Source of the DNA: an uncultured Syntrophomonadaceae bacterium
Lineage (GTDB): Bacteria; Bacillota; Dethiobacteria; PWVN01
Reading direction: 5' to 3'
Assembly (NCBI GenBank): GCA_964646795.1
Contig: CAZYHL010000001.1
Span: forward strand, 1 to 47,552
Length of the DNA stretch: 47,552 bases
Both the position numbers and the translations under genes were made by a program. The stretch's first letter is position 1, and the number at the start of each line of letters is the position of its first letter. This document shows positions 4,783 to 39,486 of the stretch, piece by piece. The notes below the pieces were generated by a model that saw only the letters and a list, made by a program, of their open reading frames with translations, did no database searches and had not been told where the DNA came from.

Positions 4783-4810
4783 ACAAATGATGGCAGTTAC
4801 TCCTTTGTAT

Positions 4811-4851
4811 ATGAGTGCTTAGGTTCCTTTGGAGGGTTCCTAGGCACTCAT
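4811..4851 (+). promoter_or_regulatory. 13-bp stem-loop / inverted repeat in the leader of the first rightward gene
   Basis: atgagtgcttagg (4811-4823) pairs with cctaggcactcat (4839-4851), including one G-U. The real RBS GAGGA starts 2 nt after the stem. Confidence 0.55.
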
Positions 4852-4861
4852 TGAGGATCAG

Positions 4862-5452
4862 ATGGCAACCGAACTTAATGACAAAGCAGATAGACAAAAC
4901 TTAATGTACGGTCAACTCATACGTGACTTCGATCAGCGTAGAGTTCCCAGGGAGGAACGTGGAACTTACGACATTAAACAGTTCTGGCAACGCCATCATG
5001 AAATCTGCAACCTAGCTGCCCAAGGTTACAAGCAAACAGATATTGCATACATCCTTGGGATCACTCCGCAGACAGTTTCCAACACCTTGAATTCGACATT
5101 AGGTGAAGAGAAACTTTCAGTAATCAGGGAAGAACGTGACCAAGATGCCAAGCGTACTGTGGAACGCATCCGAGTCCTTCGTGACAAAGCTCTTAAAGTC
5201 TATCAAGAGTTATTTGATGGCCAGGATGAAGATGGTAATCCTGTAGACTGTTCCATGGCTCAGCGTATCCACGCAGCTGACGTAGTCACTCTCGAACTCG
5301 CAGCTATGAAAGCCCCTACCAAGATCCAGGCCACATCCACCCACACTGTTCTCACAGGCGAAGAACTCCTTGCCATCAAGCAACGTGCCATTGATGAGGG
5401 CAAGAAGTGTGGGATGATAGTAGAAACTACCGCAGAGGAGGTCAAAGAGTGA
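4862..5452 (+). CDS. HTH DNA-binding protein (LuxR/GerE-like helix-turn-helix); regulator or small terminase candidate
   Basis: GYKQTDIAYILGITPQTVSNTL motif at about aa 55-76, followed by a charged coiled-coil region. First gene of the rightward arm. Confidence 0.5.
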   Translation: MATELNDKADRQNLMYGQLIRDFDQRRVPREERGTYDIKQFWQRHHEICNLAAQGYKQTDIAYILGITPQTVSNTLNSTLGEEKLSVIREERDQDAKRTVERIRVLRDKALKVYQELFDGQDEDGNPVDCSMAQRIHAADVVTLELAAMKAPTKIQATSTHTVLTGEELLAIKQRAIDEGKKCGMIVETTAEEVKE

Positions 5453-5892
5453 ACCAACGCACTATCGACCTCATCAAACAAAACGAAGGCTTCTCTGCCA
5501 CAGTCTATCTTTGCCCTGCAGGGTTTCATACAATAGGTTACGGCCACAACTGCGACGCTCACGGTGACCTCAATGCTTACATCAATCGCACTCTTTCTCC
5601 AGCAGAAGCTGATGATCTTCTTCTCTCCGATATAAGTGATGTTGAAAAAGATCTTACAAAATTTGTACGAACTTTTGATTCCCTAGATGAAGTACGCCAG
5701 GGTGTACTCATAGATATGTGCTTCAACTTAGGCATTGGTGGTCTGAAAAATTTCAAAAAATTTCTGAGACATTTGCTAGTTGGTAACTACAGATGGGCTG
5801 CACGTGAGATGTATGACTCTAAGTGGTTTAAGCAAGTCCCTCTTCGTGCCTCCAAGAATATGTTCATGATCCTCACAGGAGAATACTTCTAA
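5449..5892 (+). CDS. endolysin, GH24 (T4-type) lysozyme
   Basis: IDLIKQNEGFSATVYLCPAGFHTIGYGH matches the E..G..Y.D..G..TIGYGH lysozyme signature. GTG start in a GTGA overlap, preceded by GAGGAGG. Confidence 0.85.
   Translation: MNQRTIDLIKQNEGFSATVYLCPAGFHTIGYGHNCDAHGDLNAYINRTLSPAEADDLLLSDISDVEKDLTKFVRTFDSLDEVRQGVLIDMCFNLGIGGLKNFKKFLRHLLVGNYRWAAREMYDSKWFKQVPLRASKNMFMILTGEYF
5649..5673. repeat. PAL25 copy inside the endolysin CDS
   Basis: agatcttacaaaatttgtacgaact, coding KDLTKFVRT. Confidence 0.9.
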
Positions 5893-6377
5893 TGGGTGGC
5901 ATCTTGACAACCATAGGCTCTATCGCTGGAGGAGGGGTTAAAGACCTTGTCCTCGGCGTCTTAGATCGTATCAAGTTAGCCCCTGAAAAGAAGGCCGAAG
6001 TTGAACTTGCCATGGCTAACAATGCCCTCGAGTTGCAAAAGCTAGACTTCGAACTCCAGAAGAAACAACAGGACTATGAGCAATCTGTTACTGAATCTCA
6101 GAAGGCAATCATCGTAGCTGAGATGTCTCAAGGTGATGCCTACACAAAGAGAGCTCGTCCAACAATAGTCTACGCTGGTCTCGTCTTTGTAATCCTCAAT
6201 TACATAGTCCCTACCTACATGGGTTTCTTTGCAAACAAAGCAGTCCCAGAAGTCCCTATTCCTGCTGATTTCTGGTGGGTATGGGGAGGTGTTTGTGGTA
6301 CCTGGATCGTAGGCCGCTCTATGGAGCGTCGCGGTATAGGTATGTCTAAAACTACTAAATCCCTCACAGGAGTTTAA
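5892..6377 (+). CDS. holin candidate (resembles the GTA-type 3-TM holin family)
   Basis: The N-terminal LDRIKLAPEKKAEVELAM segment, coiled coil, then ARPTIVYAGLVFVILNYIV and further TM segments match my recollection of PF11351-like holins. Adjacent to the endolysin. Confidence 0.55.
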   Translation: MGGILTTIGSIAGGGVKDLVLGVLDRIKLAPEKKAEVELAMANNALELQKLDFELQKKQQDYEQSVTESQKAIIVAEMSQGDAYTKRARPTIVYAGLVFVILNYIVPTYMGFFANKAVPEVPIPADFWWVWGGVCGTWIVGRSMERRGIGMSKTTKSLTGV

Positions 6378-6683
6378 ATGTCTCATATCCTCGAAAGGTT
6401 TTTCACCCACTTTGCTGCATCGACTTTCTTAACCCTAGCATTTTTCTACGCACTTAATTATTGGCTTAGAAGAACATCCAAAGTCGGCATCTGGCTATCT
6501 TCTCGCAAAGAGCATTTATTAGTAACTTCAGCATTACTAGTCTTCTCCCTAATGACTCTTCGAGAGCCTTTCGATGTTTACTTTGGTACACAGGTATGGT
6601 ACAAAGCTATCACAGATCAAGTCTCCTGGTTCTTAGGTGCAGCAACTAGCGTATATGGCCTTTACAGATATAGTAAATCCTAA
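6378..6683 (+). CDS. multi-pass membrane protein (lysis accessory?)
   Basis: Three hydrophobic segments. AGGAG RBS. Follows the holin. Confidence 0.6.
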   Translation: MSHILERFFTHFAASTFLTLAFFYALNYWLRRTSKVGIWLSSRKEHLLVTSALLVFSLMTLREPFDVYFGTQVWYKAITDQVSWFLGAATSVYGLYRYSKS

Positions 6684-6734
6684 TGACTTAGCTAGAATTC
6701 TCCGAGTACCACACGACGAACTTTGGAAAGTTAG

Positions 6735-7190
6735 ATGAAGTCACTACTTCTTCTCCCATTCTTAGCAATTAATCTATTCGCAGGTGAAGTATGGCTAGCG
6801 TGGGATCCTTCTGAAACGTCAGAAGTTACTGGGTACAGAGTATATATAGGTACAGCTTCACGTAACTATTCTGGATTCAAAGATGCTGGAAACGCCCTCG
6901 AATACAAGGCCAAAGACCTTCCGAATGGAATAGTCCATTACTTCGCGGCGACCGCCTACGACGCCGACGGCAACGAAAGTGACTATTCCAATGAGGCCTC
7001 AACCAAAGTTATCACCTGCGACCTTAACAACGATAGTTCAGTAAATGTCCTTGATCTCCAGCTCATGATAAACCTTATCCAAACCAACCAGCTCACTCAA
7101 GCTCACGATCTTAACAAGGATAGTGTATTAAACATTCTAGATTTCCAAACTCTCATAAACGTCTTATCAGGAAAACAGTCGTGTCGATAG
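6735..7190 (+). CDS. secreted FN3 domain protein with C-terminal dockerin-like module
   Basis: Signal-peptide-like MKSLLLLPFLAINLFAGE. FN3 signature LAWDPSE..VTGYRVYIG...YFAATAYDADGNESDYSNE. Two dockerin-type repeats, DLNNDSSVNVLDLQLMINLI and DLNKDSVLNILDFQTLINVL. Confidence 0.7.
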   Translation: MKSLLLLPFLAINLFAGEVWLAWDPSETSEVTGYRVYIGTASRNYSGFKDAGNALEYKAKDLPNGIVHYFAATAYDADGNESDYSNEASTKVITCDLNNDSSVNVLDLQLMINLIQTNQLTQAHDLNKDSVLNILDFQTLINVLSGKQSCR

Positions 7191-7201
7191 GAAGTGAAAC
7201 T

Positions 7202-7474
7202 ATGGTCATAGCAAATGTTTCGTGTAGTGCAAACCCAGCTGAAGAAGCCATTACTGGGTATAACTTTTACCTCAACGGTGCAATCCAGGGAAACTCTCCC
7301 ATCCCTTCATTCACCATCGAGAATGTTCCTGCAGGGACTAATTCGTTTGAAGTCTCAGCTTTCAACCTCCTCGGGGAAGGTCCTAAGAGTGATCCATTCA
7401 TTCTGGCCGTCCCAGCAGGTGGGCCGTCCAAAACTGTCAATGTTCAAGTCACAGTGAGTGTAACCGTTTCCTAA
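7202..7474 (+). CDS. FN3/Ig-like domain protein (90 aa)
   Basis: ITGYNFYLNGA...FTIENVPAGTNSFEVSAFNLLGEGPKSDP. Start taken at the ATG at 7202 (the track gives GTG at 7181). Confidence 0.6.
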   Translation: MVIANVSCSANPAEEAITGYNFYLNGAIQGNSPIPSFTIENVPAGTNSFEVSAFNLLGEGPKSDPFILAVPAGGPSKTVNVQVTVSVTVS

Positions 7475-7788
7475 TGAAAACTATCCTGTTTGTCAATAAG
7501 GAAGTTGCTTCACTCCAATGTGACGTACTAACTTCAGGGAGGGTAACTTTGATAGTCGATGCAGCAAAAGAGAAATCAATCCAGGTTTCTCCCCTCCCTG
7601 ATGGTTTCATACGGATTATGGTATTCGGAATGAACCAGAATTTATTCTCTGGAGCTTTTGTTCACGTAGATGACTTCATCTCCTCTATCACCAATGTGGT
7701 GTGTGCAGATGCTAACGCTGGTAATGCTCACGCTGTTATTTCGAAGATATCGTCCCCAGCTAATGTTGTTGCTGAGACCGTTAAATAA
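7474..7788 (+). CDS. hypothetical beta-rich protein, tentatively cohesin-like (104 aa)
   Basis: The pattern LQCDVL..G.V / DGFIRIMVFGMNQNLFSGAFVHV / ITNVVCADANAGNAHAVI is reminiscent of cohesin beta-sandwich segments. This rests on eye-level similarity only. Confidence 0.3.
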   Translation: MKTILFVNKEVASLQCDVLTSGRVTLIVDAAKEKSIQVSPLPDGFIRIMVFGMNQNLFSGAFVHVDDFISSITNVVCADANAGNAHAVISKISSPANVVAETVK

Positions 7789-7799
7789 TTAAACGAACT
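7775..7799. repeat. degenerate PAL25 copy abutting the ATG at 7800
   Basis: agaccgttaaataattaaacgaact. The right arm and following bases (acgaactatgaa, 7793-7804) are repeated at 10683-10694. Confidence 0.5.
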
Positions 7800-8543
7800 A
7801 TGAAAATAGCCATTCACTCCATGATCCGAGATGCTTACAAGCCTTACCTAGACGAATGGCTTGCTCATCATAGGGCTTTAGGCATAGATCATTTCTTCAT
7901 CTATGATCATGATAGTGTAGAACCCTTAGCTAGAATTCTCAAAAATGCCTCAGATGTGACGGTAAAACCTATTCATGGCACACCTAGTGCAAACCTAGGC
8001 GTACATAAAACATCCTATTTAGACTTCCTTGGGCTCCTCAAAGAAGGCTACCTCCCTCATTATGATCGCGTAGCTTTCATAGACGAAGATGAGTTCATCA
8101 TCTGTTCAAATGGCAGCATAAAGGACACCTTAGCAAATTATCAAGACTGCCCTGCAATAGGCGTGAGTTGGCGCATCTTTGGCTCTTCAGGTGTGCAAAC
8201 AAGAACTCCCGAACTCCAAGCAAAGAAGTTCACTAAGCACACAAGTAGATTCTACCACTCCAACATCAATATGAAGAGTATAGTTAATCCTTACCTAGTA
8301 AAGGACTATCTATCCCCTCACTCATTTTCCTATCACTTAGGCAACGCAGTCAATGAGCATCACATAGTAATTCCATCACACTATACCTACCCCTCCTATG
8401 ACTACATCTGGATAAACCACTATTGGACACGTAGTAGGGAGGAATTCATAGTTAAAGCCGACAGAGGATTGGCTGATACAGGTGAGAAACGCGACTACTC
8501 AATGTTTGATGATGTAGAGATTAATTGTACAGAATCTATATGA
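7800..8543 (+). CDS. glycosyltransferase (GT2_4/GT92-like fold)
   Basis: YLDEWLAHHRALGIDHFFIYDHDS and FIDEDEFII (DxD-type) motifs, typical of this family. Confidence 0.65.
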   Translation: MKIAIHSMIRDAYKPYLDEWLAHHRALGIDHFFIYDHDSVEPLARILKNASDVTVKPIHGTPSANLGVHKTSYLDFLGLLKEGYLPHYDRVAFIDEDEFIICSNGSIKDTLANYQDCPAIGVSWRIFGSSGVQTRTPELQAKKFTKHTSRFYHSNINMKSIVNPYLVKDYLSPHSFSYHLGNAVNEHHIVIPSHYTYPSYDYIWINHYWTRSREEFIVKADRGLADTGEKRDYSMFDDVEINCTESI

Positions 8544-10666
8544 AGACACTATTAATAGCCCTCTACCCTTATAACGCGCAAGGCCTTGATGCCTGGCTCG
8601 ATCATTCCTCTGGAATGACCTACACAGCTGCTAAAAACGCTGGATGTGACATAGACTTCCTCGACATGAAGTCCCTCCACAACGATGAACAACTCAAGTC
8701 AGCTATGCAAGGCTACGATCTCATCGCATTCGGCCTAAAAAGCTCATACTACCCATTAGGCATGAAAGTGATTCAATTCGCTAAAGCTCAAGGATCTAAA
8801 ACCATCGTAGGAGGATACCACGCTACTGCAGCTCCCGAGGAGCTTCTCGAAAACCCACTTATCGACTACGTCTTCCACAAAGAAAGTGAACTAACTTTCC
8901 CTCAATTTCTGCTTAACCCTGCCCAATTCCCCAGGGAAATCTTCGGCGAGTCTGTACAAAATTTGGACGAACTACCATTCATGGACCGTTCTATGTTCCG
9001 CAGTCCACTAGAACCAGTCCTTTCCTGGTGGCATGGCGGACAGAGGGCATTCATGACTTCCATCATCACTAGTCGTGGATGCCCTTATCGCTGTGCTTTC
9101 TGCCAGCCAATAGAAGATAATCACTTTGGGAAGAAACTTAGACGTAGGAGTGTAGATTCAGTAATTGAAGAACTTGCACTTCTCAAGTACTTATACAATC
9201 CAGACTGCTTAATGATCCATGATGATACCTTTCTACTCCAACGTAACTGGCTTGAAGAATTCATAGAGAAGTATCCTCAAATAGGTCTCCCTTTCTGGGC
9301 TGCGGGACGTGCAGATGGAATCATCAAGTATGAAGACTTGGTTCGTAAATTAGTAAATGTAGGCTGGGAACTCATCTCTGTCGGCTTCGAAAGTGGCTCT
9401 CAAAAAATCCTCAACAAGATGAAGAAGGATACCACTGTCGAGCAAAACCTCGAAGCTGCTCGCATCATCAAGTCCACTGGAGCAAAGATATATGCCAACT
9501 ATATGCTTGGCCTTCCTTGGGAAACCAAAGCAGATGTTCAAGCTACAATGTCCATGGCTGACGCCATCGATGCAGAGATGCCTTCATGGGCCTACTTCAC
9601 TCCCTACCCTGGCTGCGAACTTGCCAACGAGATCAACGAGAACAACTGGTCCCTCCTCGACCGAAACAACTACTATCGTCTTCCTTCAGGTGAAAAGGTA
9701 ACTAATGTCGACTACTCTTATCTTCTCTCGTGTCTTAGAGGATTCAGGGAATCCAGGCCTGCACTACTTACAGACATTATCATTCCAACCTATGAAAATG
9801 AACAACTCACAGTGGATTGCTTTGAATCTATCAAGGCTTCTACTACTCCAGGAACTTATCGAATCATCTGGGTGGACAACGGATCTAGAAACTTCGAGTT
9901 GGCTAAACGAGCTATTAGAGATATAGAGCATTTATCATACAGGTTTGACACTAATCAAGGTTTCGTAGTTGCAGTAAACAAAGGCCTCACTCTCAGCGAC
10001 GCACCTACAGTAATGCTCCTCAACAACGACACTCGCGTGTACAAAGGGTGGCTAGACAAACTCATTCGTATCCTCTGGTCCGACGAGAAGATTGGCATTG
10101 TAGGCCCACTAACAGGCTATGCACCTCCAAGCAAAGAAGACTCTCCTCATTGCCTTAATCTCCACAAAGATCTTCTCCCTCCTGAGGCTCGAGAGTGGAA
10201 CTTTGAAAAGCTTAATGAAGCATTAGAGAATGGCTACACTGGTCGTACTGCAGAAGCACCATTCGTAGCTTTCCTCGCAGCACTCATTCGTCGAGAAGTA
10301 ATCAACGTCATAGGCCCTCTTGACACCAACTTCAAACACGGAATGTGGGATGATGTTGACTATAATCGTAATGTAAGGAACATAGGCTACAAGTGCCTCT
10401 ATGCCCTTGACACAGTAATCTACCATCGTGGGCGCAGCACTTTTAACATGATAGAAAAAGAGGAAGGCTTCAATGTAGGCAAGCTCCTTGCCACAAACAA
10501 AGAGTACCTTGATCGCAAGTGGAATGATAACGTAGTGCTTGGTGTACCTAAGAAATCCATAACAGCTTCTCCAACTCTGAGCATACTAACTCGTCGTAAC
10601 TCCTGGCGAAGTCGTATAGAAAAGCCTAAATTCGTAACTGATTACGATAAGCCTAAAGACCTATAG
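8540..10666 (+). CDS. fusion protein: B12-binding-like domain + radical SAM core + GT2 glycosyltransferase (708 aa)
   Basis: ATGA overlap start. N-terminal Rossmann-like segment (DLIAFGLKSS...TIVGGYHATAAPEELL). CxxxCxxC cluster GCPYRCAFC (nt 9080-9103). C-terminal IIIPTYENE...IIWVDNGS...LLNNDT...WDDVDY GT2 motifs. Confidence 0.8.
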   Translation: MKTLLIALYPYNAQGLDAWLDHSSGMTYTAAKNAGCDIDFLDMKSLHNDEQLKSAMQGYDLIAFGLKSSYYPLGMKVIQFAKAQGSKTIVGGYHATAAPEELLENPLIDYVFHKESELTFPQFLLNPAQFPREIFGESVQNLDELPFMDRSMFRSPLEPVLSWWHGGQRAFMTSIITSRGCPYRCAFCQPIEDNHFGKKLRRRSVDSVIEELALLKYLYNPDCLMIHDDTFLLQRNWLEEFIEKYPQIGLPFWAAGRADGIIKYEDLVRKLVNVGWELISVGFESGSQKILNKMKKDTTVEQNLEAARIIKSTGAKIYANYMLGLPWETKADVQATMSMADAIDAEMPSWAYFTPYPGCELANEINENNWSLLDRNNYYRLPSGEKVTNVDYSYLLSCLRGFRESRPALLTDIIIPTYENEQLTVDCFESIKASTTPGTYRIIWVDNGSRNFELAKRAIRDIEHLSYRFDTNQGFVVAVNKGLTLSDAPTVMLLNNDTRVYKGWLDKLIRILWSDEKIGIVGPLTGYAPPSKEDSPHCLNLHKDLLPPEAREWNFEKLNEALENGYTGRTAEAPFVAFLAALIRREVINVIGPLDTNFKHGMWDDVDYNRNVRNIGYKCLYALDTVIYHRGRSTFNMIEKEEGFNVGKLLATNKEYLDRKWNDNVVLGVPKKSITASPTLSILTRRNSWRSRIEKPKFVTDYDKPKDL
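8949..8973. repeat. PAL25 copy inside the radical-SAM/GT2 CDS
   Basis: agtctgtacaaaatttggacgaact, coding ESVQNLDEL. Confidence 0.85.
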
Positions 10667-10689
10667 ATCCTCCAAAAATTGTACGAACT
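10665..10689. repeat. PAL25 copy (intergenic, CCTCC variant)
   Basis: agatcctccaaaaattgtacgaact. Its first two bases are the AG of the TAG stop at 10664-10666. The ATG at 10690 abuts the right end. Confidence 0.9.
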
Positions 10690-10827
10690 ATGAATAGATT
10701 CCTAGACACATTCAACAAGTTTCCAACCGACAAGCCTCAATATGCGGACTTCTACAATAGGATTTTCACAGGGATAAATCCAAAGATCATTCTTGAACAA
10801 AATATAGTAATGTTGAGGAAGAGATAG
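10690..10827 (+). CDS. 45-aa ORF, possibly the N-terminal remnant of a SAM-dependent methyltransferase
   Basis: MNRFLDTFNKFPTDKPQYADFYNRIFTGINPKIILEQNIVMLRKR resembles the GTDK..H.Y...Y...F......ILE start of LPS-cluster methyltransferases. The stop overlaps the terminase GTG (TAGTG). Confidence 0.35.
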   Translation: MNRFLDTFNKFPTDKPQYADFYNRIFTGINPKIILEQNIVMLRKR

Positions 10828-12386
10828 TGGAAGATAATCAACTTCAGGAAATCTTATACCAATGCAGTATATCCACCAGGATGACTGCTAAGACTTTCTT
10901 TCCTGAGCGGTTTAGTCTTCCATTTGCTCCAGCAATTCACGACAAGATCTTCTCTATGATCGACGATCCTACCCATCAAATGATAGCTATTGCCGCACCT
11001 CGTGGTTATGGGAAGACTTCTATTGATGCACTTGCGTTGCCTGCTAGATACATTATGTTCAGACTAGCCAACTTCATAGTCTACATCAACAAGTCTGAAA
11101 CTGCTGCAATTATGCAGACTGAGAACCTTCGTCGTGAATTAGTAACCAACAGAGACATCAAAGGCATCTTTGGTAATGTGCGAGTCAGGGCAACTTCCAA
11201 TGATGAGATGGAAGAGCAGTTTAGTAAAAAATCCTGGGTTGCATATGACACTATGGTACTCCCTCGAGGGGCAGGCCAGCAAGTTCGCGGAATCCTCTAC
11301 AAGAATTCTCGACCTTTACTATTCATCATTGACGACTTGGAAGATCCAGAACTTATAGAAAACAAGGATTATCGTGACAAGTTGTACCAGTGGCTCTATG
11401 CAGATGTTATCAAAGCAGTCCCACGTATAGGTCCTGATGCTAAACGGTGGAAAGTAATCTACATCGACACTCTCAAACACGAAGACTCTGTCCTCCAAAG
11501 GTTAATGGACTCACCTGACTGGCACTCCATTCGTCTCGAGGCTTGTGATGATAACTTCAAATCAACCGCTCCGGAATTCCTCAGCGATGAAGACATTGCT
11601 CTTGAATGGGACAAGCATGTCAACTCAGGACAAACAGATGTATTCTTTAGAGAGTTGCGCAATCTGCCGATTAGCACGAAGGACTCTGCATTCCAGCAAC
11701 AGTATTTTAAATACTACAATACACCACCTGAACGTACACTTAGAGCAGATATAGACCTTAAAGTTACTGATGCAGAACTTCAATACAACAAAGAAGTTGA
11801 AACAATAGTCATTGTTGACCCTGCCAAAACAGTCAAGATGAACTCTGCTGAATCAGCTGTCATAGGCATAGGCATCGACATAGCCAATGCTCGCCTTTAC
11901 ATCCGTGATGCTATATCGAAGAAAGTAATGCCTGATGAGCTTTACGACGAAGCCTTTGGAATGGCAATCCGCTTAGGGGCTAAAGTCATAGGCGTTGAAA
12001 CTACTGGCCTCGAAGAGTTCATCAAACAACCTTTCAAAAATGAGATGTTTCGCAGAGGGAAGTTCTTTGAGCTAGTGTGGCTCAAGGCGCGTGGTGGTAG
12101 CAAGAATGAAAAAGGCAAGATACTCCGCATTAGGGAGATGGTTCCTTATTATCGTCTAGGTTACATCTACCATAATGCCTCCTGTCCTGATGTGAAGAAG
12201 TTAGAACAGCAATTGCTTAAGTTTCCTCGTTCCAAACTACTGGATCTTATGGATGCTGAGGCTTACATCATAGAGATGCTCGAATTAGGCGAACGTTACT
12301 TTGCAACAACCAATACTGATGACCCCGAATCAGAGTTTAAAGAACTAGATTATGAAGATCCTGTGGAACGTTGGAGAATTGCATGA
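10827..12386 (+). CDS. terL: terminase large subunit
   Basis: Walker A AAPRGYGKTS and Walker B LLFIIDDLED, with a C-terminal nuclease-like half. GTG start. Confidence 0.9.
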   Translation: MEDNQLQEILYQCSISTRMTAKTFFPERFSLPFAPAIHDKIFSMIDDPTHQMIAIAAPRGYGKTSIDALALPARYIMFRLANFIVYINKSETAAIMQTENLRRELVTNRDIKGIFGNVRVRATSNDEMEEQFSKKSWVAYDTMVLPRGAGQQVRGILYKNSRPLLFIIDDLEDPELIENKDYRDKLYQWLYADVIKAVPRIGPDAKRWKVIYIDTLKHEDSVLQRLMDSPDWHSIRLEACDDNFKSTAPEFLSDEDIALEWDKHVNSGQTDVFFRELRNLPISTKDSAFQQQYFKYYNTPPERTLRADIDLKVTDAELQYNKEVETIVIVDPAKTVKMNSAESAVIGIGIDIANARLYIRDAISKKVMPDELYDEAFGMAIRLGAKVIGVETTGLEEFIKQPFKNEMFRRGKFFELVWLKARGGSKNEKGKILRIREMVPYYRLGYIYHNASCPDVKKLEQQLLKFPRSKLLDLMDAEAYIIEMLELGERYFATTNTDDPESEFKELDYEDPVERWRIA

Positions 12387-12604
12387 CAGAAGGCATAATC
12401 ATAGGAGTCACTGTGGCATTATTTACTGGAATGTTAGGCATTATTCTTGGAAGTAAGAAAAAAGTATCTGAAGAAGACTTTGGCAGGCACAAGTCAGATC
12501 CCTTCCCTCATCAGAATTGCGCAGTACATAAAAGCAAGATTGATGATATAAAGTCTCAATTAACTCACATGGATGGGAAACTTGATAAGTTGCTTGAACG
12601 ATAG
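12383..12604 (+). CDS. small N-terminally membrane-anchored protein (73 aa)
   Basis: Start revised to the ATG at 12383 (ATGA overlap). TEGIIIGVTVALFTGMLGIILG TM segment, then a coiled coil. Confidence 0.6.
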   Translation: MTEGIIIGVTVALFTGMLGIILGSKKKVSEEDFGRHKSDPFPHQNCAVHKSKIDDIKSQLTHMDGKLDKLLER

Positions 12605-12627
12605 TTCCTACAAAATTTGTACAAACT
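12603..12627. repeat. PAL25 copy (intergenic), at the left edge of the GC-rich island
   Basis: agttcctacaaaatttgtacaaact. Embeds the AG of the TAG stop at 12602-12604. Confidence 0.9.
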
Positions 12628-12723: not shown

Positions 12724-13773
12724 ATGGCACTATTACACGTTGACGGCATCCCATACGATAGTCCAACGGCGGCAGCGCCGCGCAAATGGACCACCGTGTC
12801 CATATCAGGGTATGGATCTAATCTCACGGTACAGACATCTTCTGGCCGTTTTGGCGGTAGATGGTTGAATTTCAGCTGCTCTACATCCCAAACGGGCTCA
12901 TATGTTACGGCAGCAAAGACATTCGGCGGGACGTCATCGACTATAATAGCTCAGTTTGGCTATTTGCCGATTGTTAATAATGCAGGCACTATAAAATTGA
13001 TGCAGCTCAGAGATGGTACGGCCCCGCAAATAACACTGAATGACAACGCTGGGATATTGGAAGTGCGCAGAGGGGATTACAATGGGACTTTATTGGGCGC
13101 GGCGTCGTTGGCAATTTCAACAAATGTGTGGCACCAGATTGAAGTCAAGGCGGTCATAAACAACAGCGCTGGAAGCGTACTCATCAAGGTAGACGGGGTA
13201 ACGCTAATTGACATCAGCGGTGCCGATACCCAGGCAACGGCAAATGCATACGCTAATGGTATATCTTTCGAAGCATATGGGATGCATAGAAGATTCGGTC
13301 TGTCTGATTTAGTGGTAATGGATACGTCTGGAAGCTACTGCAACGACCTGCTTGGCTCGATAATAGTGGAGCTAAAATCACCTACTGGAGATGGGTATTA
13401 CCATGACTTTGTTCCCTTAACTGGCAGTGATAACTATGCCATGGTTGATGATTTGCCCCCGGATGATGACACTAGTTATAATACCGGGAGCGTAGGTGAT
13501 CGGGACACGTTCACCTTCGACGATATAGCTAATGTCTCCGCAACGATACATGGAGTGGCGTGTACAATGTTTGCAAAACTCAATGATGGAGGGTCTGCCT
13601 CCGTTAAGGGCATGGTGCGATCAAATGGAGTTGACGCGGAAGGCGCTGCTGTTGCGGTCCCGTCGTCTTATGATTTCCTGCAAGACTTCATTTATGTAGA
13701 CCCCAATACATCCCAGCCGTTCACGGTATCATCCCTGAATAGCGCTGAATTCGGATATAAGAGGGAATCATAA
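12724..13773 (+). CDS. hypothetical virion/fibre-associated protein (349 aa), GC-rich module
   Basis: ORF track. Beta-rich sequence (possibly a lectin/LamG-like jelly roll, unverified). Composition is clearly GC-richer than the genome. Confidence 0.6.
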   Translation: MALLHVDGIPYDSPTAAAPRKWTTVSISGYGSNLTVQTSSGRFGGRWLNFSCSTSQTGSYVTAAKTFGGTSSTIIAQFGYLPIVNNAGTIKLMQLRDGTAPQITLNDNAGILEVRRGDYNGTLLGAASLAISTNVWHQIEVKAVINNSAGSVLIKVDGVTLIDISGADTQATANAYANGISFEAYGMHRRFGLSDLVVMDTSGSYCNDLLGSIIVELKSPTGDGYYHDFVPLTGSDNYAMVDDLPPDDDTSYNTGSVGDRDTFTFDDIANVSATIHGVACTMFAKLNDGGSASVKGMVRSNGVDAEGAAVAVPSSYDFLQDFIYVDPNTSQPFTVSSLNSAEFGYKRES

Positions 13774-14015
13774 TGGCCGATGCCGATAAAGTGGTAATTA
13801 GCCAGGCGGTTGCTGAAGTGGTCCACGGAGGAGCGTCCTCTGATGCCAGGGTGTCTCAGTTTGTCATAGAGTTATTACAGCAGGTAGTGGATCTCAATGT
13901 TTCTATATCTACCCTTGCAATCGAAGTAATCCGCGACACCCCAACGACATCATTCAATCCATCGTGGCTCAGTTGCCATTCGCGAATAATCGGAGGAGGT
14001 TTAAATGTATCCTAG
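13773..14015 (+). CDS. hypothetical protein (80 aa), GC-rich module
   Basis: TAATG overlap start. Same composition as its neighbours. Confidence 0.6.
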   Translation: MADADKVVISQAVAEVVHGGASSDARVSQFVIELLQQVVDLNVSISTLAIEVIRDTPTTSFNPSWLSCHSRIIGGGLNVS

Positions 14016-15996
14016 GGATGCGGCATCTCCGCCAGAGATAGCAGTTGGTGCGGTTGTGCAAATCAGTGATGGCGCAGTGCAAACTTCGGACACAACCACT
14101 AAGGTCAAGCCCAAAGGTGGAGCGTGGACAGCCGCAGGCGGAACCACGTCATTCGGTGACGGCGGCACCGCCACATACATTCCGATTCAGGCCGAGACTA
14201 ACTATGAGTCGTTCATGGTTGAAGTTTATAAGAGTGGGTGTATTCCAGCTTCTGCAACTGTTGTTACCTCCGCTTCTGCAACAGCAGGTCAGACTGTCGT
14301 GGCGACCAATAACGACAAGACCGGGTACGGCCTCGCTGACGACGCCATCACCAGCGCCAAGTTTGATGAGTCCACCGCGTTCCCTCTCAAGAGTGCAGAT
14401 ACTGGCGCTACCGCAGTCGCCCGTACTGGGTCCGGTAGTGACACGCTGGAGACATTGAGTGATCAGATGGATGCACTGCCAGCTGGAGTTCGAGACGTGA
14501 GCAACGCCGCTCCTGCCGCCGGGTCACTGGGAGAGAAGGTCAATAGTGCGGCGTCTGCTGGAGACCCGTTGGCGTCGAGCGTCCCCGGAGCATATGAAGC
14601 CGGAACCGCTGGATATATTCTCGGCACAAACCTTGATGCAAAGGTAAGTGAAGCTGGAGGCGGGGCAGCTCTGACAGTGGAGGAGATCCGCGCCGAAATC
14701 GATTCCAACTCAACGAGGCTTGCTTCTATTGATGGGAAGACAACGAATTTACCTTCCGATCCTGCCGACCAGTCGCTTGTTATCGCTGCTACCGATGCCA
14801 TCCTGACCAGGCTGGGCGCGCCAGCTGGAGCCTCTATGTCGGATGATATTGCGAATATAGTCGCAGACCTCGGGACTATCGTCCCGACGACAGATGCCCC
14901 TGATGCAGAGGTTGTCGCCAAGGGGACCGTCATTGCGGGCAGCTACGTAAACTGCCAGACAGACGACAATAATCAATACACAATTGCCCCAGTAAACCCA
15001 GGTGGAATTGACGTAGAACTCGACTTCACGATCGTGGGATCTAGAGCTCCTGTGAGTCTGAGTATCAACGGTTACTTTAAAGGTTCTGGCCGGGCGGTAG
15101 ATGTTTATGTTCTCGACTCGGAAATCGATTATTGGGACAAGCTCACCAACACTTCCACCCGGATGGCCAGTCGCAATTCCGAGACTAATTACAGTTTCCT
15201 TTTGAACCGAGAGCACATCAATCCATCGACAGGGGTAGTCAAGGTTCGATTTGTCTCAACCTCAACTACTACCTCCCATCGTCTTTACCTTGACCGTGTT
15301 CTTGTAGGCACTGTCGATATCAGTACGGGGCAAACCCCGGGTATCACTGCCCAAGATATCTGGACATATCCGGATCGCACCACGACCAACAGTGATACTG
15401 GCGATCCAGTTAACCCTCCGTCTGTTGACGAGATAGCTGCTGGCATTTTAGTTACCCCGGCACAGAAGGTTGTTACTGACGCGAGCGGATTTGTGACGGC
15501 AAATGTGAATGGCTCCATCAGTGTTTCCGGGGATGTCACCCTGGCTGCGAATCAGCCGAACTATGCTCCAGCTAAGGTGAGCGATATCCCAACGGCCGAT
15601 ATTGCGGAGATTAAGGCTAAGACTGATAATCTCCCAGTAGCTCCATCATCTCTTACAGCGCAGCAAGTATGGGAATATGCAACTCGTACTTTGAGTGCAT
15701 TTGGATTTAGTGTAACTGTAGGAACTAATAATGATAAAACTGGATATACTTTGACAGCAACGCCGCCAACATCAGAAGAAATAGCTGATAAGTTATTGGG
15801 TAGAAATCTTGCTGGCGGGTCTGATGGTGGGCGTACAGTACAAGATGCTTTAAGATTTAGTAGGAATAAGGTAGTAGTTAATCTAGTAGCAAAAACTATT
15901 ACTGTCTATGAAGAGGATGATACTACCATTGCTTGGGAAGGGGTACTTACAACTTCAGCAGCTGCTCAACATATAACAGGATTAGATCCATCATGA
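14005..15996 (+). CDS. tail fibre / host-recognition protein (663 aa), chimeric in composition
   Basis: GGAGGAGG RBS. Ala/Thr/Gly-rich fibre-like sequence with recurring NNDKTGY.L and KT.NLP motifs. The first ~1.6 kb is GC-rich and the last ~0.35 kb has genome-typical GC. Confidence 0.65.
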   Translation: MYPRDAASPPEIAVGAVVQISDGAVQTSDTTTKVKPKGGAWTAAGGTTSFGDGGTATYIPIQAETNYESFMVEVYKSGCIPASATVVTSASATAGQTVVATNNDKTGYGLADDAITSAKFDESTAFPLKSADTGATAVARTGSGSDTLETLSDQMDALPAGVRDVSNAAPAAGSLGEKVNSAASAGDPLASSVPGAYEAGTAGYILGTNLDAKVSEAGGGAALTVEEIRAEIDSNSTRLASIDGKTTNLPSDPADQSLVIAATDAILTRLGAPAGASMSDDIANIVADLGTIVPTTDAPDAEVVAKGTVIAGSYVNCQTDDNNQYTIAPVNPGGIDVELDFTIVGSRAPVSLSINGYFKGSGRAVDVYVLDSEIDYWDKLTNTSTRMASRNSETNYSFLLNREHINPSTGVVKVRFVSTSTTTSHRLYLDRVLVGTVDISTGQTPGITAQDIWTYPDRTTTNSDTGDPVNPPSVDEIAAGILVTPAQKVVTDASGFVTANVNGSISVSGDVTLAANQPNYAPAKVSDIPTADIAEIKAKTDNLPVAPSSLTAQQVWEYATRTLSAFGFSVTVGTNNDKTGYTLTATPPTSEEIADKLLGRNLAGGSDGGRTVQDALRFSRNKVVVNLVAKTITVYEEDDTTIAWEGVLTTSAAAQHITGLDPS

Positions 15997-18443: not shown

Positions 18444-18700
18444 TACGAGCTACTAAAGTACAAATAGAAGAATTCAAAGACTCTTTGCTTTGGCAAGATA
18501 TTCTTGAGGAAGTTGCCAAGTGGAAAGCTCAGGCAGCTGATGAGTATGATGCAATAGTTGCCGAAGCTGAACATACAAATCCTACCACCGCAAAGGTACT
18601 CCTTCACTTGGGTCACATAGCTGGGCGACGCTCAACTGTGGACTTCTTTGAAGGGATACTAGATATGTTACTTAGTTTCAAAGAAGCTGAACAAAAATAG
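18440..18700 (+). CDS. hypothetical head-assembly protein (86 aa)
   Basis: ATGA overlap with the portal stop. Confidence 0.65.
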   Translation: MIRATKVQIEEFKDSLLWQDILEEVAKWKAQAADEYDAIVAEAEHTNPTTAKVLLHLGHIAGRRSTVDFFEGILDMLLSFKEAEQK

Positions 18701-18723
18701 ATCATACAATTATTGTACGAACT
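18699..18723. repeat. PAL25 copy (intergenic, upstream of scaffold)
   Basis: agatcatacaattattgtacgaact. Embeds the AG of the TAG stop at 18698-18700. Confidence 0.9.
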
Positions 18724-19931: not shown

Positions 19932-21239
19932 ATGTTTCGAGGTATGCGTGGAACTGGCGATTGGGTAACAGATCAGAGGCCTAAGAGTTGGAGAGAGGCT
20001 ATTATGTACCTCTACCCCAACGGTATGGCTCCGTTGACTGCTATCCTTTCTATGATGAAGTCTTCCCGTGTAGATGATCCTGAATTCTACTGGTGGACGC
20101 AGACGCAAGGATCAGTGCAGGGTGCAGTGAGTGGTGTGTACACTTTGCCTGATTTGAGTGTGGCTTATGTAAAGGGTGGAGTTGCAGGTACGGTACTTTA
20201 TGTTGTTGTGTCTACAACTCTTGGAAAGAGCATTCGCGAAGGCCATCAGATCCTTCTGAGAGATGCTTCTGATTATTCCGTAGATGTCAATGGGAAGGTG
20301 ACCAATGTCACTATTGGTGGAGCTAACACAGTTCTAGCAGTTAAGCTGCTGGAAGGTGATGATAACTCCCTTACTCACGACCTTAGTGATTGTGATACCT
20401 TCAAAATCATCGGTAACATCAACCCTGAAGGTGGCGAGATGCCTGATGCTATTGCGCAGGACGTTACCAAAGTCTACAACAAAACCCAGATCTTCCGTAC
20501 TCCTTTGTCTCTCACTCGCACTGCGATGAAGACTAAGCTTCGCACTCCTGATGCGTATCAGAAGGCGAAGAAAGAAGCTCTGGAGATGCACTCTTTCGAA
20601 ATGGAACTTGCTTTCATCTTCGGAATTATGACTGAGAACACAGGTGATAATGGTAAGCCTGAGCGTACGACTCGGGGACTTATAGATTTCATTAAAACCT
20701 ATGCTTCGGCCAACTGTGATGATTTTCAAGCTAATGCCACTTACGCTGGTAAGGATTGGACTGACACCTTCAACGGTACTACTGCAGGCCAAGATTGGCT
20801 TGATACTTATTTCGAACAGATCTTCCGTTATGGGGCAGGTGAGAAACTAATGTTGTGTGGGTCTGGTGCGTTGTTAGGTATTCAACGCCTCGCTGCTGCT
20901 GGCGGTACTGTGCAGCTCCAGCCTGGTGCCAAAACCTACGGAATGCAGATCATGGAATGGCTGACGCCGTTTGGTAAGATCAACCTGAAGACTCATCCAC
21001 TCTTCAGCCATGATGCAACTACTCGCAACATGGGAATTATCATCGAGCCTTCGGAACTTGAGTACTGCTACATTGATGATACTCAGTTCTACGGTGAGAG
21101 TAATTCCAAGTCTCATGCTGAGGGCTATGGCAATCGACGCCTTGACGGTCTCAACGAGGAGTTCCTCACTGAATGTGGGCTTCGATTTGGTCTTGCTGAA
21201 AAGTGCGGAATTCTTAACGGAATTGGCCTGAACGCATAG
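19932..21239 (+). CDS. major capsid protein
   Basis: 435 aa. AAGGAG RBS. Follows the scaffold gene and is followed by GC-rich hairpins. Confidence 0.75.
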   Translation: MFRGMRGTGDWVTDQRPKSWREAIMYLYPNGMAPLTAILSMMKSSRVDDPEFYWWTQTQGSVQGAVSGVYTLPDLSVAYVKGGVAGTVLYVVVSTTLGKSIREGHQILLRDASDYSVDVNGKVTNVTIGGANTVLAVKLLEGDDNSLTHDLSDCDTFKIIGNINPEGGEMPDAIAQDVTKVYNKTQIFRTPLSLTRTAMKTKLRTPDAYQKAKKEALEMHSFEMELAFIFGIMTENTGDNGKPERTTRGLIDFIKTYASANCDDFQANATYAGKDWTDTFNGTTAGQDWLDTYFEQIFRYGAGEKLMLCGSGALLGIQRLAAAGGTVQLQPGAKTYGMQIMEWLTPFGKINLKTHPLFSHDATTRNMGIIIEPSELEYCYIDDTQFYGESNSKSHAEGYGNRRLDGLNEEFLTECGLRFGLAEKCGILNGIGLNA

Positions 21240-22912: not shown

Positions 22913-24882
22913 CAGATTGGAAAGCTAACAAAGGATTAGGTCCTTGGCCCTTTGCAAAGCAGCCTAATAAATGGGGCTACTTGAATAATCCTAACTGGGT
23001 TAATGATGGAGTAGCACCTATTAGTTATGACGGCAACGAGTCTGCCGAGCCTATTGTATGGTCAATAGATCCTACAAATAATGTACGAACTAGAGGGACG
23101 CAAGATAAGCATAATCCCTGTGGGCATTGGCATAGACCGGTTGATGTAGCCCCTCCTGAACCTCTCTATCCACAAGATGTCTACTTTGCTGAGAACTGCC
23201 AAGCAAAAGTATTTTCACTTGATGACGAATTAGCTGATAAAATAGCTCCAGTAAGTAGTGGGATTAATTGGGGATGCTGTACTGATGGATTACACTTTTA
23301 TGTATGTAACTACTCTCAAAATAGGTTGGAGAAGAGGTCATTAACTGATCTATCTGTAATATCTTATATATCAGGTAGACCTTATGGAAATTGTACAGAC
23401 GGCAGCGATATACTTTGGGGAAACGGATATGGATATATATCTAGGGGAATCTCTAAATATACAAAGTCTACGTTAGCTCACTTACATTACTACAATGAGA
23501 CTGAGTTAGGTCATCTATGTCCACAATACGCTTTGGATATGACAGTTGATGATCAATACTTATATGTAGCAGATGCTTGGGGATATAGAATACAAAGATA
23601 TAATAAAAGTTCTATGGTGTTATCTCAATCTTATGGGATGCCTAGATCATATAATTTTGCTTCTAATGGTATATGGGTTAGTGGAGACTATGCTTATATA
23701 GTAAGCTCTGGCTCTTTATTAAAGGTAGATAAAGTTACTTGGGAAATAGTAGATATCTTAGGAGATGATTACTCATATGACTTTACTGGATATAAGCATG
23801 ATGGGAATTTGGCTGCTTATGATGTAATAGTTGTAGGTAGTTACTTATATACTATAGGATATGCAGGGGTAAATAGATTTGACATAAGTAACTTTGATAT
23901 AGATGGAGTTAATATAATTCCTAATACAGATAGTGGATATGGTACATTAGGAGATAGCTCATATCAAGCTTGTTATGATGGGACTTATATTTACATATGT
24001 AGTCTGGATGCTTATATAACTAAATGGAATTTAGCTACTGGAGCATTTGTAGCTGAAAATGGTGATAGGTCATATGAGACTGAGGATGGCGAGAATGCTT
24101 ATAACTATCCTTGTGGTATAGCTTGTGATGATACTTATCTGTATATAATAGATCAGAATGACACATTTAGAGTTATTAAAAGGTTAAAGTCAGATTTATC
24201 ATATGTATCTGAATATAGAAGTACTGAATATTGGGAAGACCCTATTACATCTTATGAGTGGGCCAATCCTCAGGGCCTGATATGTGATGATACCTACTTA
24301 TATATTTCTTCTCCTCAATATCCTGCAGGTTTTGTAAGGATGGATAAAGCTACTTTAACATTTGTAGACTTTATAAATATAGATGATGGAGATCATAGCG
24401 GTAACGGTGTGCATGAAGCTATGGATATGTTTATTGATGGAAGTTATTTATATGTAAGTGATTATGATAGTGGGGCGGCTAGATTTAATTTAGCAGACTT
24501 TTCATTTGTGAGTAGAAGTCCTGAAGATACTACCTTCTATGATGAAGAAGATATATTTGATGATTTAACTGGAATTACGGTAGATGAAGACTATGTATAT
24601 GTAGTAAGTAGTAGCGTAGTGAAGATATATAATAAATTAACTTTTACATTTGTAGACTCATTTACTCCTGCACTTGGGAATATGATGTACCCGGCAGTCG
24701 ATAGTAAATATTTATACATCTGTCATCATTTTTCTACGTTGCAGAATCAATTTTTAACAGACTACGTAAAGAAGTACTTGAAGGTGCCACCTTATACAGA
24801 AATAGGATCTAATAGCACTCATCATCCAATAAGTTGTGATAAGGCTTGGTTGTATCAACTTGGACATTATACAGAGGATTAA
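22909..24882 (+). CDS. receptor-binding tail protein with beta-propeller-type repeats (657 aa)
   Basis: ATGA overlap start. About ten repeats, 45-55 aa apart, end in Y.Y[IV] (DQYLYVAD, GDYAYIVS, GSYLYTIG, GTYIYICS, DTYLYIID, DTYLYISS, GSYLYVSD, EDYVYVVS, SKYLYICH). Very AT-rich from about 23,200 onward. Confidence 0.6.
   Translation: MTDWKANKGLGPWPFAKQPNKWGYLNNPNWVNDGVAPISYDGNESAEPIVWSIDPTNNVRTRGTQDKHNPCGHWHRPVDVAPPEPLYPQDVYFAENCQAKVFSLDDELADKIAPVSSGINWGCCTDGLHFYVCNYSQNRLEKRSLTDLSVISYISGRPYGNCTDGSDILWGNGYGYISRGISKYTKSTLAHLHYYNETELGHLCPQYALDMTVDDQYLYVADAWGYRIQRYNKSSMVLSQSYGMPRSYNFASNGIWVSGDYAYIVSSGSLLKVDKVTWEIVDILGDDYSYDFTGYKHDGNLAAYDVIVVGSYLYTIGYAGVNRFDISNFDIDGVNIIPNTDSGYGTLGDSSYQACYDGTYIYICSLDAYITKWNLATGAFVAENGDRSYETEDGENAYNYPCGIACDDTYLYIIDQNDTFRVIKRLKSDLSYVSEYRSTEYWEDPITSYEWANPQGLICDDTYLYISSPQYPAGFVRMDKATLTFVDFINIDDGDHSGNGVHEAMDMFIDGSYLYVSDYDSGAARFNLADFSFVSRSPEDTTFYDEEDIFDDLTGITVDEDYVYVVSSSVVKIYNKLTFTFVDSFTPALGNMMYPAVDSKYLYICHHFSTLQNQFLTDYVKKYLKVPPYTEIGSNSTHHPISCDKAWLYQLGHYTED
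23067..23091. repeat. PAL25 copy inside the receptor-binding protein CDS
   Basis: agatcctacaaataatgtacgaact, coding IDPTNNVRT. Lies about 130 nt before the drop in GC. Confidence 0.9.
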
Positions 24883-39476: not shown

Positions 39477-39486
39477 TTTCTTCTCC

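Follow-up and report, generated by a model that had tools for sequence, protein, structure and literature searches.

Radical S-adenosylmethionine (SAM) enzymes of the B12 type that tailor sugars, virus-encoded glycan cassettes and multidomain viral glycosyltransferase (GT) fusions are each known singly. In gentamicin biosynthesis, GenD1 and GenK are cobalamin-dependent radical-SAM (rSAM) sugar C-methylases acting after glycosylation (PMC4340712), and in the hopanoid side chain a sugar is installed by the GT2 enzyme HpnI and is proposed to be rearranged by the B12-type rSAM enzyme HpnJ (PMC13459092). On the viral side, the soluble GT-GT-methyltransferase fusion A064R of PBCV-1 builds a non-canonical capsid glycan (PMC9614988), and accessory GT genes of mycobacteriophages are described as decorating virion proteins at the C-termini of capsid and tail-tube proteins (Freeman et al. 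2023, as cited in PMC12619734). Here, we analyze a stretch of 47,552 nucleotides (the window; contig CAZYHL010000001.1 of assembly GCA_964646795.1, assigned to an uncultured Syntrophomonadaceae bacterium) that looks like a complete or near-complete tailed-phage genome. It encodes a 708-amino-acid (aa) protein in which a radical-SAM domain is fused to its glycosyltransferase, and it is this combination, occurring across several uncultured phage lineages, that is new.

The fusion open reading frame (ORF) is a real feature rather than an artefact and is highly conserved. An earlier note, made from the sequence alone, had read three parts in it, a B12-binding-type Rossmann segment, a radical-SAM core and a C-terminal GT2 domain. 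All three score above their Pfam cut-offs (PF02310, 38.7 bits against 32.1; PF04055, 62.5 against 29.5; PF00535 at aa 413-556, 55.7 against 23.3), the motifs lie where that note had read them, and the radical-SAM and GT2 assignments are backed by Pfam, an AlphaFold2 (AF2) model and Foldseek alike (Table 1). The start is placed at ATG 8540 and not at TTG 8525, since the homologues all open with MKTL(I/L)IALYPY. In an alignment of 43 full-length homologues, the cysteines of the cluster motif GCPYRCAFC (C181, C185 and C188) are the only fully invariant ones in the rSAM half; C223 is nearly invariant, and no further conserved cysteine set for an auxiliary Fe-S cluster is present. On the basis of motif, profile and fold, the core is predicted to perform radical-SAM catalysis, generating a 5'-deoxyadenosyl radical from SAM. 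The same alignment shows an invariant K67-S68..Y70 loop and an invariant G92-Y93-H94 in the Rossmann domain, as well as invariant N495, N496, D497, D604, D605 and D607 in the GT2 domain, where D446 is nearly so. The GT2 motifs IIIPTYENE, WVDNGS, NND and DDVDY can all be read in the translation, with N495-N496-D497 occupying the DxD position, which reads NND and not DxD. The AF2 model has a mean predicted local distance difference test score (pLDDT) of 88 with disorder confined to the last 45 residues, and in it the Rossmann fold takes up about the first 135 residues, five strands and five helices lying within aa 1-125. No transmembrane (TM)-like segment is present in the fusion or in the GT92 protein encoded just upstream of it.

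The earlier note knew of no characterized radical-SAM/GT2 fusion in a phage, and this was borne out. Among 50,697 GenBank phages the fusion is absent, tblastn giving separate halves only, at about 27% identity, and a full-text literature search returned no paper on a B12-rSAM/GT fusion or a phage example. PHROGs holds no family for the rSAM half and gives weak matches to the GT2, BFVD gives no full-length structural match, and neither the fusion nor the GT92 protein carries a name in public databases. The 185,579 species-representative genomes searched yielded no prophage copy, the closest relatives in them being 32-35% identical over the rSAM half only. A survey of the architecture left it uncharacterized but not a singleton: a metagenome protein collection contains about 95 clusters with the full B12, rSAM and GT2 complement at 53-74% identity, many of them on contigs of 40-52 kb, and distant cellular megaproteins exist. 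The fusion, undescribed before, is thus a large metagenomic phage family and not rare. At 50% clustering the tight fusion family reduces to about five representatives. Variants include forms of about 930-965 aa with an extra C-terminal rhamnosyltransferase-like domain and rSAM-only proteins of 404 aa at about 70% identity. The cellular megaproteins include P0122 (B12-rSAM, SAM-methyltransferase, three GT2, a GT1-like domain and tetratricopeptide repeats, TPR), P0167 (B12-rSAM, four GT2 and TPR) and a protein at a Nitrospiraceae locus (L062; rSAM, two GT2 and TPR) that adjoins a sugar-nucleotide epimerase/dehydratase. Membership in a defence system was considered and rejected, a PADLOC search giving nothing beyond a 23-bit generic match.

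The rSAM half and its cognate GT2 probably serve one pathway, as judged by classic fusion/fission evidence. The order rSAM-then-GT2, found in the clusters above, is the commonest arrangement; the order is reversed in P0092 (GT2 at aa 139-413, rSAM at aa 482-1171), the two are adjacent separate genes at four loci (L005, L141, L149 and L154), and in P0009 the fusion is lengthened by a third GT-like domain. Among 31 IMG/VR loci recovered by an rSAM profile search, the cognate GT2 is present wherever the flank suffices, so that the linkage is obligate, and these four arrangements together with the constant co-occurrence point to one shared pathway. In the homologues P0028 and P0092, an intein (CLSGDT...VHN) is inserted between R184 and C185, equivalent to about nt 9092 of the window, making the second cluster cysteine, C185, the +1 splice nucleophile; the P0028 intein carries an HNH_3 domain. 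Inteins are typically inserted in essential catalytic motifs, and an intein within CxxxCxxC thus marks the cluster site as essential. The intein at the cluster cysteine and the existence of both domain orders are independent signs of strong selection on activity. The rSAM halves of three phage lineages are 56-74% identical to that of the window, with a mean column identity of 79% (alignment A2), and tblastn across the loci gives 56-82% identity for the rSAM half and 41-67% for the GT2 domain. This difference is weak evidence that the rSAM domain may see an invariant substrate while the transferase adapts; constraints from three cofactors could be an alternative cause.

The gene immediately upstream encodes a GT-A glycosyltransferase of the GT92 fold, matched by PF13704 (Glyco_tranf_2_4; aa 15-107, 54.8 bits against a cut-off of 27.5) and PF01697 (Glyco_transf_92; aa 17-203, 51.3 against 23). 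Its AF2 model has a pLDDT of 93.2, and its best match in the PDB is poplar GalS1 (8d3t, GT92; E = 1.9e-10, TMq 0.61), followed by the peptide S-glycosyltransferases SunS and ThuS. The DxD motif reads D95-E-D97-E98, in which D95, D97 and E98 are invariant in 28 homologues. The coupling of this transferase to the fusion through an ATGA overlap, as first noted from the sequence, could be read directly, and both profile and fold support its GT92 type. No Shine-Dalgarno site lies upstream of 8540, which, together with the overlap, fits translational coupling, and the gene calls of L141 and L142 show the same 4-nt overlap. The GT92 gene stands immediately 5' of the rSAM gene in the window, in L142, L146 and L166, and in the separate lineage represented by L141. 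Its small family comprises 29 clusters, several on contigs also bearing the fusion or an rSAM-only gene, and the GT92 protein is a recurrent but non-universal partner of the rSAM gene. The public annotation of this protein (P0267, 240 aa) begins 7 codons downstream of ATG 7800 (7800-7821); the longer form is supported by homologues of 245-255 aa, whose alignments cover all 247 residues.

In order to place the rSAM half among known enzymes, its closest structures and profiles were compared. Foldseek gives a probability of 1.00 for AprD4, MgmA, TsrM, OxsB, MiaB, CysS and TokK, in agreement with the partial TIM barrel of the superfamily; of these, MgmA, TsrM, OxsB, CysS and TokK are cobalamin enzymes and rank after AprD4. 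The best match is AprD4 (6fd2; E = 1.8e-21, TM score of 0.69 normalized to the target, 445 columns; E = 7e-14 by sequence), and the second is MgmA, a methyl-coenzyme M reductase (MCR) glutamine C-methylase (9ccb, E = 8e-18). Among NCBIfam models, HpnJ (TIGR03471) is best with 128.7 bits at aa 57-395 against an equivalog cut-off of 577.6. Lower scores are those of the AprD4 model NF033070 (53.7 bits against 500, aligning to the core at aa 171-378 only) and of the KedN5 and PhpK families (34-61 bits against 600-700). Further matches are to TIGR04014, to C-methylases of ribosomally synthesized and post-translationally modified peptides (RiPPs), to ApyD and, weakly, to the mycofactocin glycosyltransferase MftF (42.8 bits). 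Membership in HpnJ, AprD4, BchE, MgmA, PhpK and other NCBIfam equivalogs was rejected, as the scores are far below the cut-offs.

The N-terminal domain bears on whether cobalamin is used. The HpnJ, HpnR, MJ_1487 and RiPP-methylase profiles align across it, and its layout of five strands and five helices matches the description of class I enzymes (PMC12931638). A profile of this domain alone matches the cobalamin domain of TokK (E = 0.007) and 4Q37, and a GG(Y/P)H(A/V)T motif is common to TokK and the fusion. The most conserved loop of the family, K67-S68-S69-Y70-Y71, aligns with the TokK loop bearing the lower-axial Trp76, where the fusion has an ambiguous Ser or Tyr. The Pfam score above cut-off, the Rossmann layout and the match to TokK and 4Q37 favour a genuine B12 domain, and cobalamin use by the fusion is plausible from sequence and model. 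Class B enzymes bind cobalamin base-off without a protein ligand, and AprD4 does not bind it (PMC12931638); base-off binding of this kind makes cobalamin use undecidable by sequence motif. The label B12-type given in the earlier note is supported for the N-terminal domain, by PF02310 and the TokK profile, but the nearest solved relative of the core works without cobalamin. Because AprD4 binds no cobalamin, C-methylation would be only one of several chemistries possible for the fusion.

Since its close characterized relatives GenD1/GenK, AprD4 and HpnJ act on sugars, the rSAM domain most likely tailors a sugar. Alternatively, it might modify an amino-acid side chain or peptide, as do MgmA/QCMT, Mmp10 and the RiPP methylases, with the GT2 glycosylating the same protein. 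The rank of MgmA as second structural match, the NCBIfam matches to TIGR04014, RiPP C-methylases and ApyD, the resemblance of the GT92 model to SunS and ThuS, and the TPR repeats of the cellular relatives, which are protein-binding modules, would all agree with this. However, those scores are all far below family cut-offs, the top structural match (AprD4) and the top profile match (HpnJ) act on sugars, and the recurrent partners are all glycan enzymes or small SAM-methyltransferases, with no precursor peptide or conserved non-enzymatic partner seen, so that we regard a peptide substrate as quite improbable. A small-molecule or cofactor product, such as a soluble glycoside acting on host physiology, might be suggested by the weak MftF match and by the small pseudo-oligosaccharides on which AprD4 and GenD1/GenK act, as in aminoglycoside-like tailoring. 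This is very unlikely, as no cassette contains scaffold-forming genes, the matches are far below cut-offs and the structural-module context described below would be hard to explain.

The GT2 half is a COG1216-type soluble GT-A enzyme with EpsD as its best GT-side NCBIfam match. Its best solved matches by Foldseek are polypeptide GalNAc-transferases (E = 8e-12), with PcManGT also among them.

The genomic context was examined in 51 IMG/VR loci of the same phage family, sampled by their large terminase (TerL) gene and therefore unbiased toward the fusion. The interval between a helix-turn-helix (HTH) gene and TerL is a hypervariable slot holding an accessory cassette, and the fusion is present in 9 of the 27 loci in which the whole interval is available. 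The late-arm location, which had seemed unusual when the window was read alone, is accordingly not so: the slot is conserved in the phage family, and relatives hold tail-spike, GT and methyltransferase genes there. The GT92 gene occupies it in the window, L007/L008, L142, L146 and L166, and other contents are a 330-aa GT2 (GT2_330), a rhamnosyltransferase-like gene or domain, a 314-aa SAM-methyltransferase, a 191-aa methyltransferase-like protein (phrog_21658) and a β-helix protein of about 870 aa that matches a tail-spike PHROG and is often coupled to the fusion; two slots (L028 and L050) have none of these genes. An obligate link between the tail-spike-like β-helix gene and the fusion was rejected, as each occurs without the other.

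Two further lineages carry the cassette elsewhere. In the second lineage, the L141 cassette comes right behind the genes for the cement and major capsid proteins (Pfam scores of 29.8 bits, cut-off 24, and 37.9 bits, cut-off 27, respectively), and in L149 it lies downstream of this gene pair. One of the proteins encoded there matches a PHROG annotated as a sialyltransferase and has an MptE-like Pfam match below threshold. In the third (L005/L006), the cassette comes after a gene for an LPD38 protein of 1,758 aa and has two SAM-methyltransferase genes; the GT2 that L005 encodes separately matches GtrB-like PHROGs weakly. In all three lineages the cassette lies in late or structural regions and never in the replication module. 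It is horizontally mobile, and its partners (GT92, other GTs and SAM-methyltransferases) are mixed and matched.

Two observations concern the slot itself. GC skew is negative from the HTH gene to TerL (region 4800-12000; for example, -0.175 at 8001-9000) and strongly positive, up to +0.37, over the same-strand structural genes (12000-35000); this break coincides with the hypervariable slot, and the region may be of foreign or recent origin. In one close relative (L001 327-701 and L002 5217-5591), an Acb2/Tad1-hairpin-type gene (PF24729, an anti-CBASS/Thoeris sponge family) sits just 5' of the HTH gene bordering the slot.

We tentatively propose, with confidence somewhat short of even, that the fusion is a bifunctional builder and tailor of a glycan, encoded in an accessory mobile glyco-cassette expressed with the late genes and acting most probably on a virion protein. 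The soluble GT2 would take a sugar from a nucleotide-sugar of the host and attach it to an acceptor in the cytoplasm, and the rSAM domain would use its [4Fe-4S] cluster and the SAM-derived radical to tailor the same sugar at an unactivated carbon, acting either on the nucleotide-sugar ahead of transfer or on the resulting glycoside. Bound cobalamin would allow C-methylation; failing that, the reaction could be a deoxygenation or a rearrangement of the ring. A further sugar might then be added by the GT92-type enzyme, whose gene is translationally coupled to that of the fusion, and other cassette partners might extend or O-methylate the glycan. A short non-canonical glycan would result; its most probable carrier would be a component of the capsid, fibre or spike, where it could serve as a protective or recognition-altering coat. 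The cassette partners are glycan enzymes (GT92, GT2_330, the rhamnosyltransferase-like domain, SAM-methyltransferases and the sialyltransferase-annotated PHROG protein), and the lack of TM segments in either enzyme suggests that the acceptor is cytoplasmic. As expected of virion glycosylation, the two window enzymes are soluble, and the gene context is late or structural in all three lineages. A virion protein is favoured because the cassette is placed in the head module in L141 and L149, the enzymes are soluble, the phage seems not to be temperate, and A064R and the mycobacteriophages offer precedents. The more specific proposal, in which virion proteins receive a C-methylated, deoxygenated or ring-contracted sugar from a cobalamin-dependent rSAM enzyme and the GT joined to it, with the cassette spreading horizontally between unrelated lineages, is rather doubtful.

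Several points weigh against this proposal. Family scores far below equivalog cut-offs mean that no specific chemistry can be transferred from a relative, the closest solved core is the non-cobalamin enzyme AprD4, and cobalamin use by the fusion is plausible at most. Both the phage and its host are uncultured. The GalNAc-transferase ranking of the GT2 half is a lead only, as it may reflect the many PDB entries of these enzymes. Capsid length and C-terminus are the same in fusion-carrying and fusion-lacking relatives, so that there is no capsid-tail signature as reported for mycobacteriophages; this comparison speaks neither for nor against virion glycosylation as an idea. Finally, the lysis genes, the secreted dockerin protein and the tail-spike gene of relatives fit host-surface glycan biology equally well.

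The last point leads to the main rival of a virion-protein acceptor, namely remodelling of the host envelope. The cassette would then modify a surface-polymer precursor at the cytoplasmic face, such as a lipid-linked O-antigen, a capsule or exopolysaccharide (EPS) unit, a teichoic acid or a hopanoid-type glycolipid, and the receptor would be changed, either keeping progeny from being caught on debris or shutting out competing phages. The slot is shared with the lysis genes, the secreted dockerin protein and often the tail-spike-like β-helix gene coupled to the fusion, and in P22-type phages the gtr genes for O-antigen conversion adjoin that for the tail spike. Moreover, GT2 enzymes typically make polysaccharides, the match to EpsD and the weakly GtrB-like GT2 of L005 agree with this, and HpnJ, the best NCBIfam match, acts on a membrane glycolipid after the GT2 HpnI. 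Nevertheless, the features of a Gtr-type module are lacking: neither enzyme has a TM segment, no flippase partner (GtrA/Wzx-like) was seen, no integrase or lysogeny module is present among the window ORFs of at least 90 aa, and the species genomes hold no prophage copies, so that classical lysogenic seroconversion does not apply. Late expression would leave little time for remodelling, the cassette of L141 and L149 sits in the head module after the capsid genes, and the β-helix gene and the fusion are distributed independently. We therefore consider envelope remodelling unlikely. The earlier note suggested that a modified sugar is placed either on virion proteins or on a polymer of the host envelope; this agrees with all findings, the choice between the two acceptors being our inference.

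A modified DNA base is a further conceivable acceptor, with the GTs glycosylating it and the rSAM domain tailoring base or sugar. GT-A-fold DNA glycosyltransferases are common in phages and cluster with ThyS or 5mYOX-type genes (10.1101/2023.12.21.572611), and the window encodes a dCMP deaminase, MazG, a ParB-N6/N4 methylase and a PolA with an N-terminus resembling uracil-DNA glycosylase (UDG). However, no thymidylate synthase (TS) homologue, 5mYOX/TET enzyme, C5-methyltransferase or deoxynucleoside monophosphate (dNMP) kinase, genes with which known pathways cluster, was found among the window ORFs of at least 90 aa, and the cassettes of relatives likewise contain no hydroxylated-base enzymes. 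The cassette also lies in late or structural regions in three lineages and is missing from two thirds of the close relatives that have the same replication genes. DNA glycosylation, which had been judged less likely from the start for want of TET-type partners, is thus highly improbable.

Table 1 Features of the fusion, its cassette and the neighbouring part of the window
Feature	Position	Strand	Basis
HTH protein, left border of variable slot	4862..5452	+	weak Pfam HTH matches; homologue there in nearly all related phages
Lysozyme	5407-5892	+	PF00959, E = 1.2e-16
GTA_holin_3TM (3-TM holin)	5892-6377	+	PF11351, E = 1.3e-22
Dockerin protein (type I)	6735-7190	+	PF00404, E = 1.1e-9; signal-like hydrophobic N-terminus, aa 3-23
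GT92-fold GT-A glycosyltransferase, 247 aa	7800..8543	+	PF01697, PF13704, AF2, Foldseek
ATGA start/stop overlap, GT92 gene and fusion gene	8540..8543	+	read from sequence
Fusion ORF, 708 aa (B12-binding-type Rossmann, radical-SAM core, GT2)	8540..10666	+	
B12-binding-type Rossmann domain, aa 30-123	8627..8908	+	PF02310 and AF2 secondary structure
Radical-SAM core, aa 175-339	9062..9556	+	PF04055
CxxxCxxC [4Fe-4S] motif GCPYRCAFC, C181/C185/C188	9080..9103	+	
GT2 (GT-A) domain, aa 413-640	9776..10459	+	PF00535; PF13641 alignment covers aa 413-640
C-terminal tail, aa 664-708, low confidence, poorly conserved	10530..10663	+	pLDDT <50; no alignment consensus
Large terminase TerL, right border of slot	10827..12386	+	phrog_38, E = 9e-66
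Palindrome, copies 1-6	2469-2493, 5649-5673, 8949-8973, 10665-10689, 12603-12627, 18699-18723		
Palindrome, copies 7-12	23067-23091, 29869-29893, 39487-39511, 42129-42153, 42697-42721, 45526-45550		

The rightward arm of the window runs from the HTH protein through the lysis genes and the cassette to TerL and then to portal, capsid (19932-21239) and tail genes, an order that we take to resemble the lambda late operon. The cassette is flanked by the lysozyme, holin and TerL matches, confirming its placement between lysis genes and terminase. Of the secreted FN3/dockerin neighbours first described, the dockerin protein was recovered, but FN3 only faintly, as a J-like match to phrog_31 and as a faint fn3 match in the protein that the related phage L142 has at the dockerin position. 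The leftward arm carries the replication genes (DUF3987 primase, MazG, PolA, ParB-N6/N4 methylase and dCMP deaminase) and also encodes Sak4, a PD-(D/E)XK exonuclease, a HIRAN protein and an ATP ligase. The window genes show classical Shine-Dalgarno sites, which suggests from sequence that the host is not a Bacteroidota-type organism. No tRNAs were found in the window, and megablast of 20 kb of it against the 50,697 GenBank phages gave no match.

Some of these genes have features of their own. The family A DNA polymerase (36948-39497, minus strand) has an N-terminal domain of the uracil-DNA-glycosylase superfamily (PF03167, E = 8.5e-10, aa 24-161) ahead of its 3'-5' exonuclease and polymerase domains. 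Beside it, a ParB N-terminal domain is fused to an N6/N4 DNA methylase (39510-40835, minus strand; PF02195 and PF01555), with the dCMP deaminase (41296-41814), MazG (36523-36831) and the HIRAN protein (45742-46188) nearby. The structural arm closes with a 2,034-aa ORF without a PHROG match (28859-34963). Between TerL and a portal-like gene, a 663-aa protein rich in Ala, Ser, Thr and Gly (14005-15996; GC 0.56 against about 0.42) repeats an NNDKTGY(G/T)L motif near both ends and has no Pfam or PHROG match; it resembles a fibre protein and might be a target of glycosylation. Other candidate acceptors include the capsid, portal and tail proteins, a 349-aa protein (12724-13773) and, in relatives, the β-helix spike.

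A 25-bp palindrome, AGTTCGTACAA-NNN-TTGTACGAACT, is dispersed over the window in 12 copies (at most 3 mismatches) with 0 expected, and its 11-mer half-site is present 55 times where about 11 would be expected. One copy lies within the fusion gene and another abuts its stop codon, and perfect half-sites lie just 5' of several late-gene starts (10679, 16465 and 18713). In the closest relative (L007/L008), the fusion gene has palindrome copies at the two equivalent places, whereas copies are few or absent in more distant relatives and cellular loci. A phage regulator might use the palindrome as an operator or as a site associated with promoters.

To our knowledge, radical-SAM chemistry is not known in viral glycan synthesis, and if the fusion tailors a sugar, it would bring a new reaction type to phage biology. 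If the more specific proposal of cobalamin-dependent tailoring on virion proteins is true, the product would be the first radical-SAM-tailored viral glycan and the enzymes a new functional subfamily of class B radical-SAM enzymes, tying the properties of the phage particle to the Fe-S and B12 supply of the host. For enzymology, the fusion offers a compact and conserved class-B-like rSAM enzyme joined to the supplier or consumer of its substrate, which should make the substrate easier to find than for most orphan B12-rSAM enzymes. For phage biology, the cassette points to a mobile, mix-and-match glycan module with possible effects on the stability, adhesion or recognition of virions or on the chemistry of the host surface, and phage fitness would depend on host Fe-S and possibly cobalamin supply.

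Compared with described systems, the fusion has counterparts for each of its parts. AprD4, a radical-SAM 1,2-diol dehydratase of apramycin biosynthesis (6FD2), has a Rossmann-like N-terminal domain, as does the fusion, and acts on an aminoglycoside sugar, but has neither cobalamin nor a GT fusion. GenD1 and GenK resemble the fusion in their N-terminal B12-type Rossmann domain, radical-SAM core and partnership with GTs; unlike it, they lack a GT fusion and work as stand-alone enzymes (about 600-700 aa) of actinobacterial natural-product pathways, and they show no family-level sequence match. HpnI, HpnK and HpnJ differ from the cassette in being separate proteins that act on a membrane lipid, the chemistry of HpnJ being itself unproven, and the phage cassettes contain no hopanoid genes. 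The cellular megaproteins (P0122, P0167, P0205 and L062), themselves uncharacterized, share the rSAM and GT2 unit and sometimes extra domains of the phage-cassette type, but they are about 25-35% identical at genome level, 1,000 to more than 2,000 aa long, equipped with TPR repeats and encoded in cellular genomes. For the GT92 protein, the closest solved structure is that of GalS1, a galactan synthase that extends an existing glycan. The mycobacteriophage cassettes, for which no radical-SAM component is reported, belong to hosts and phage lineages unrelated to those of the window phage. PBCV-1 A064R comes from a eukaryotic giant virus, carries a class-I SAM O-methyltransferase and has no sequence relationship to the fusion, and yet, like it, is a virus-encoded, soluble, cytoplasmic, multidomain protein that combines GT domains with a sugar-tailoring domain.

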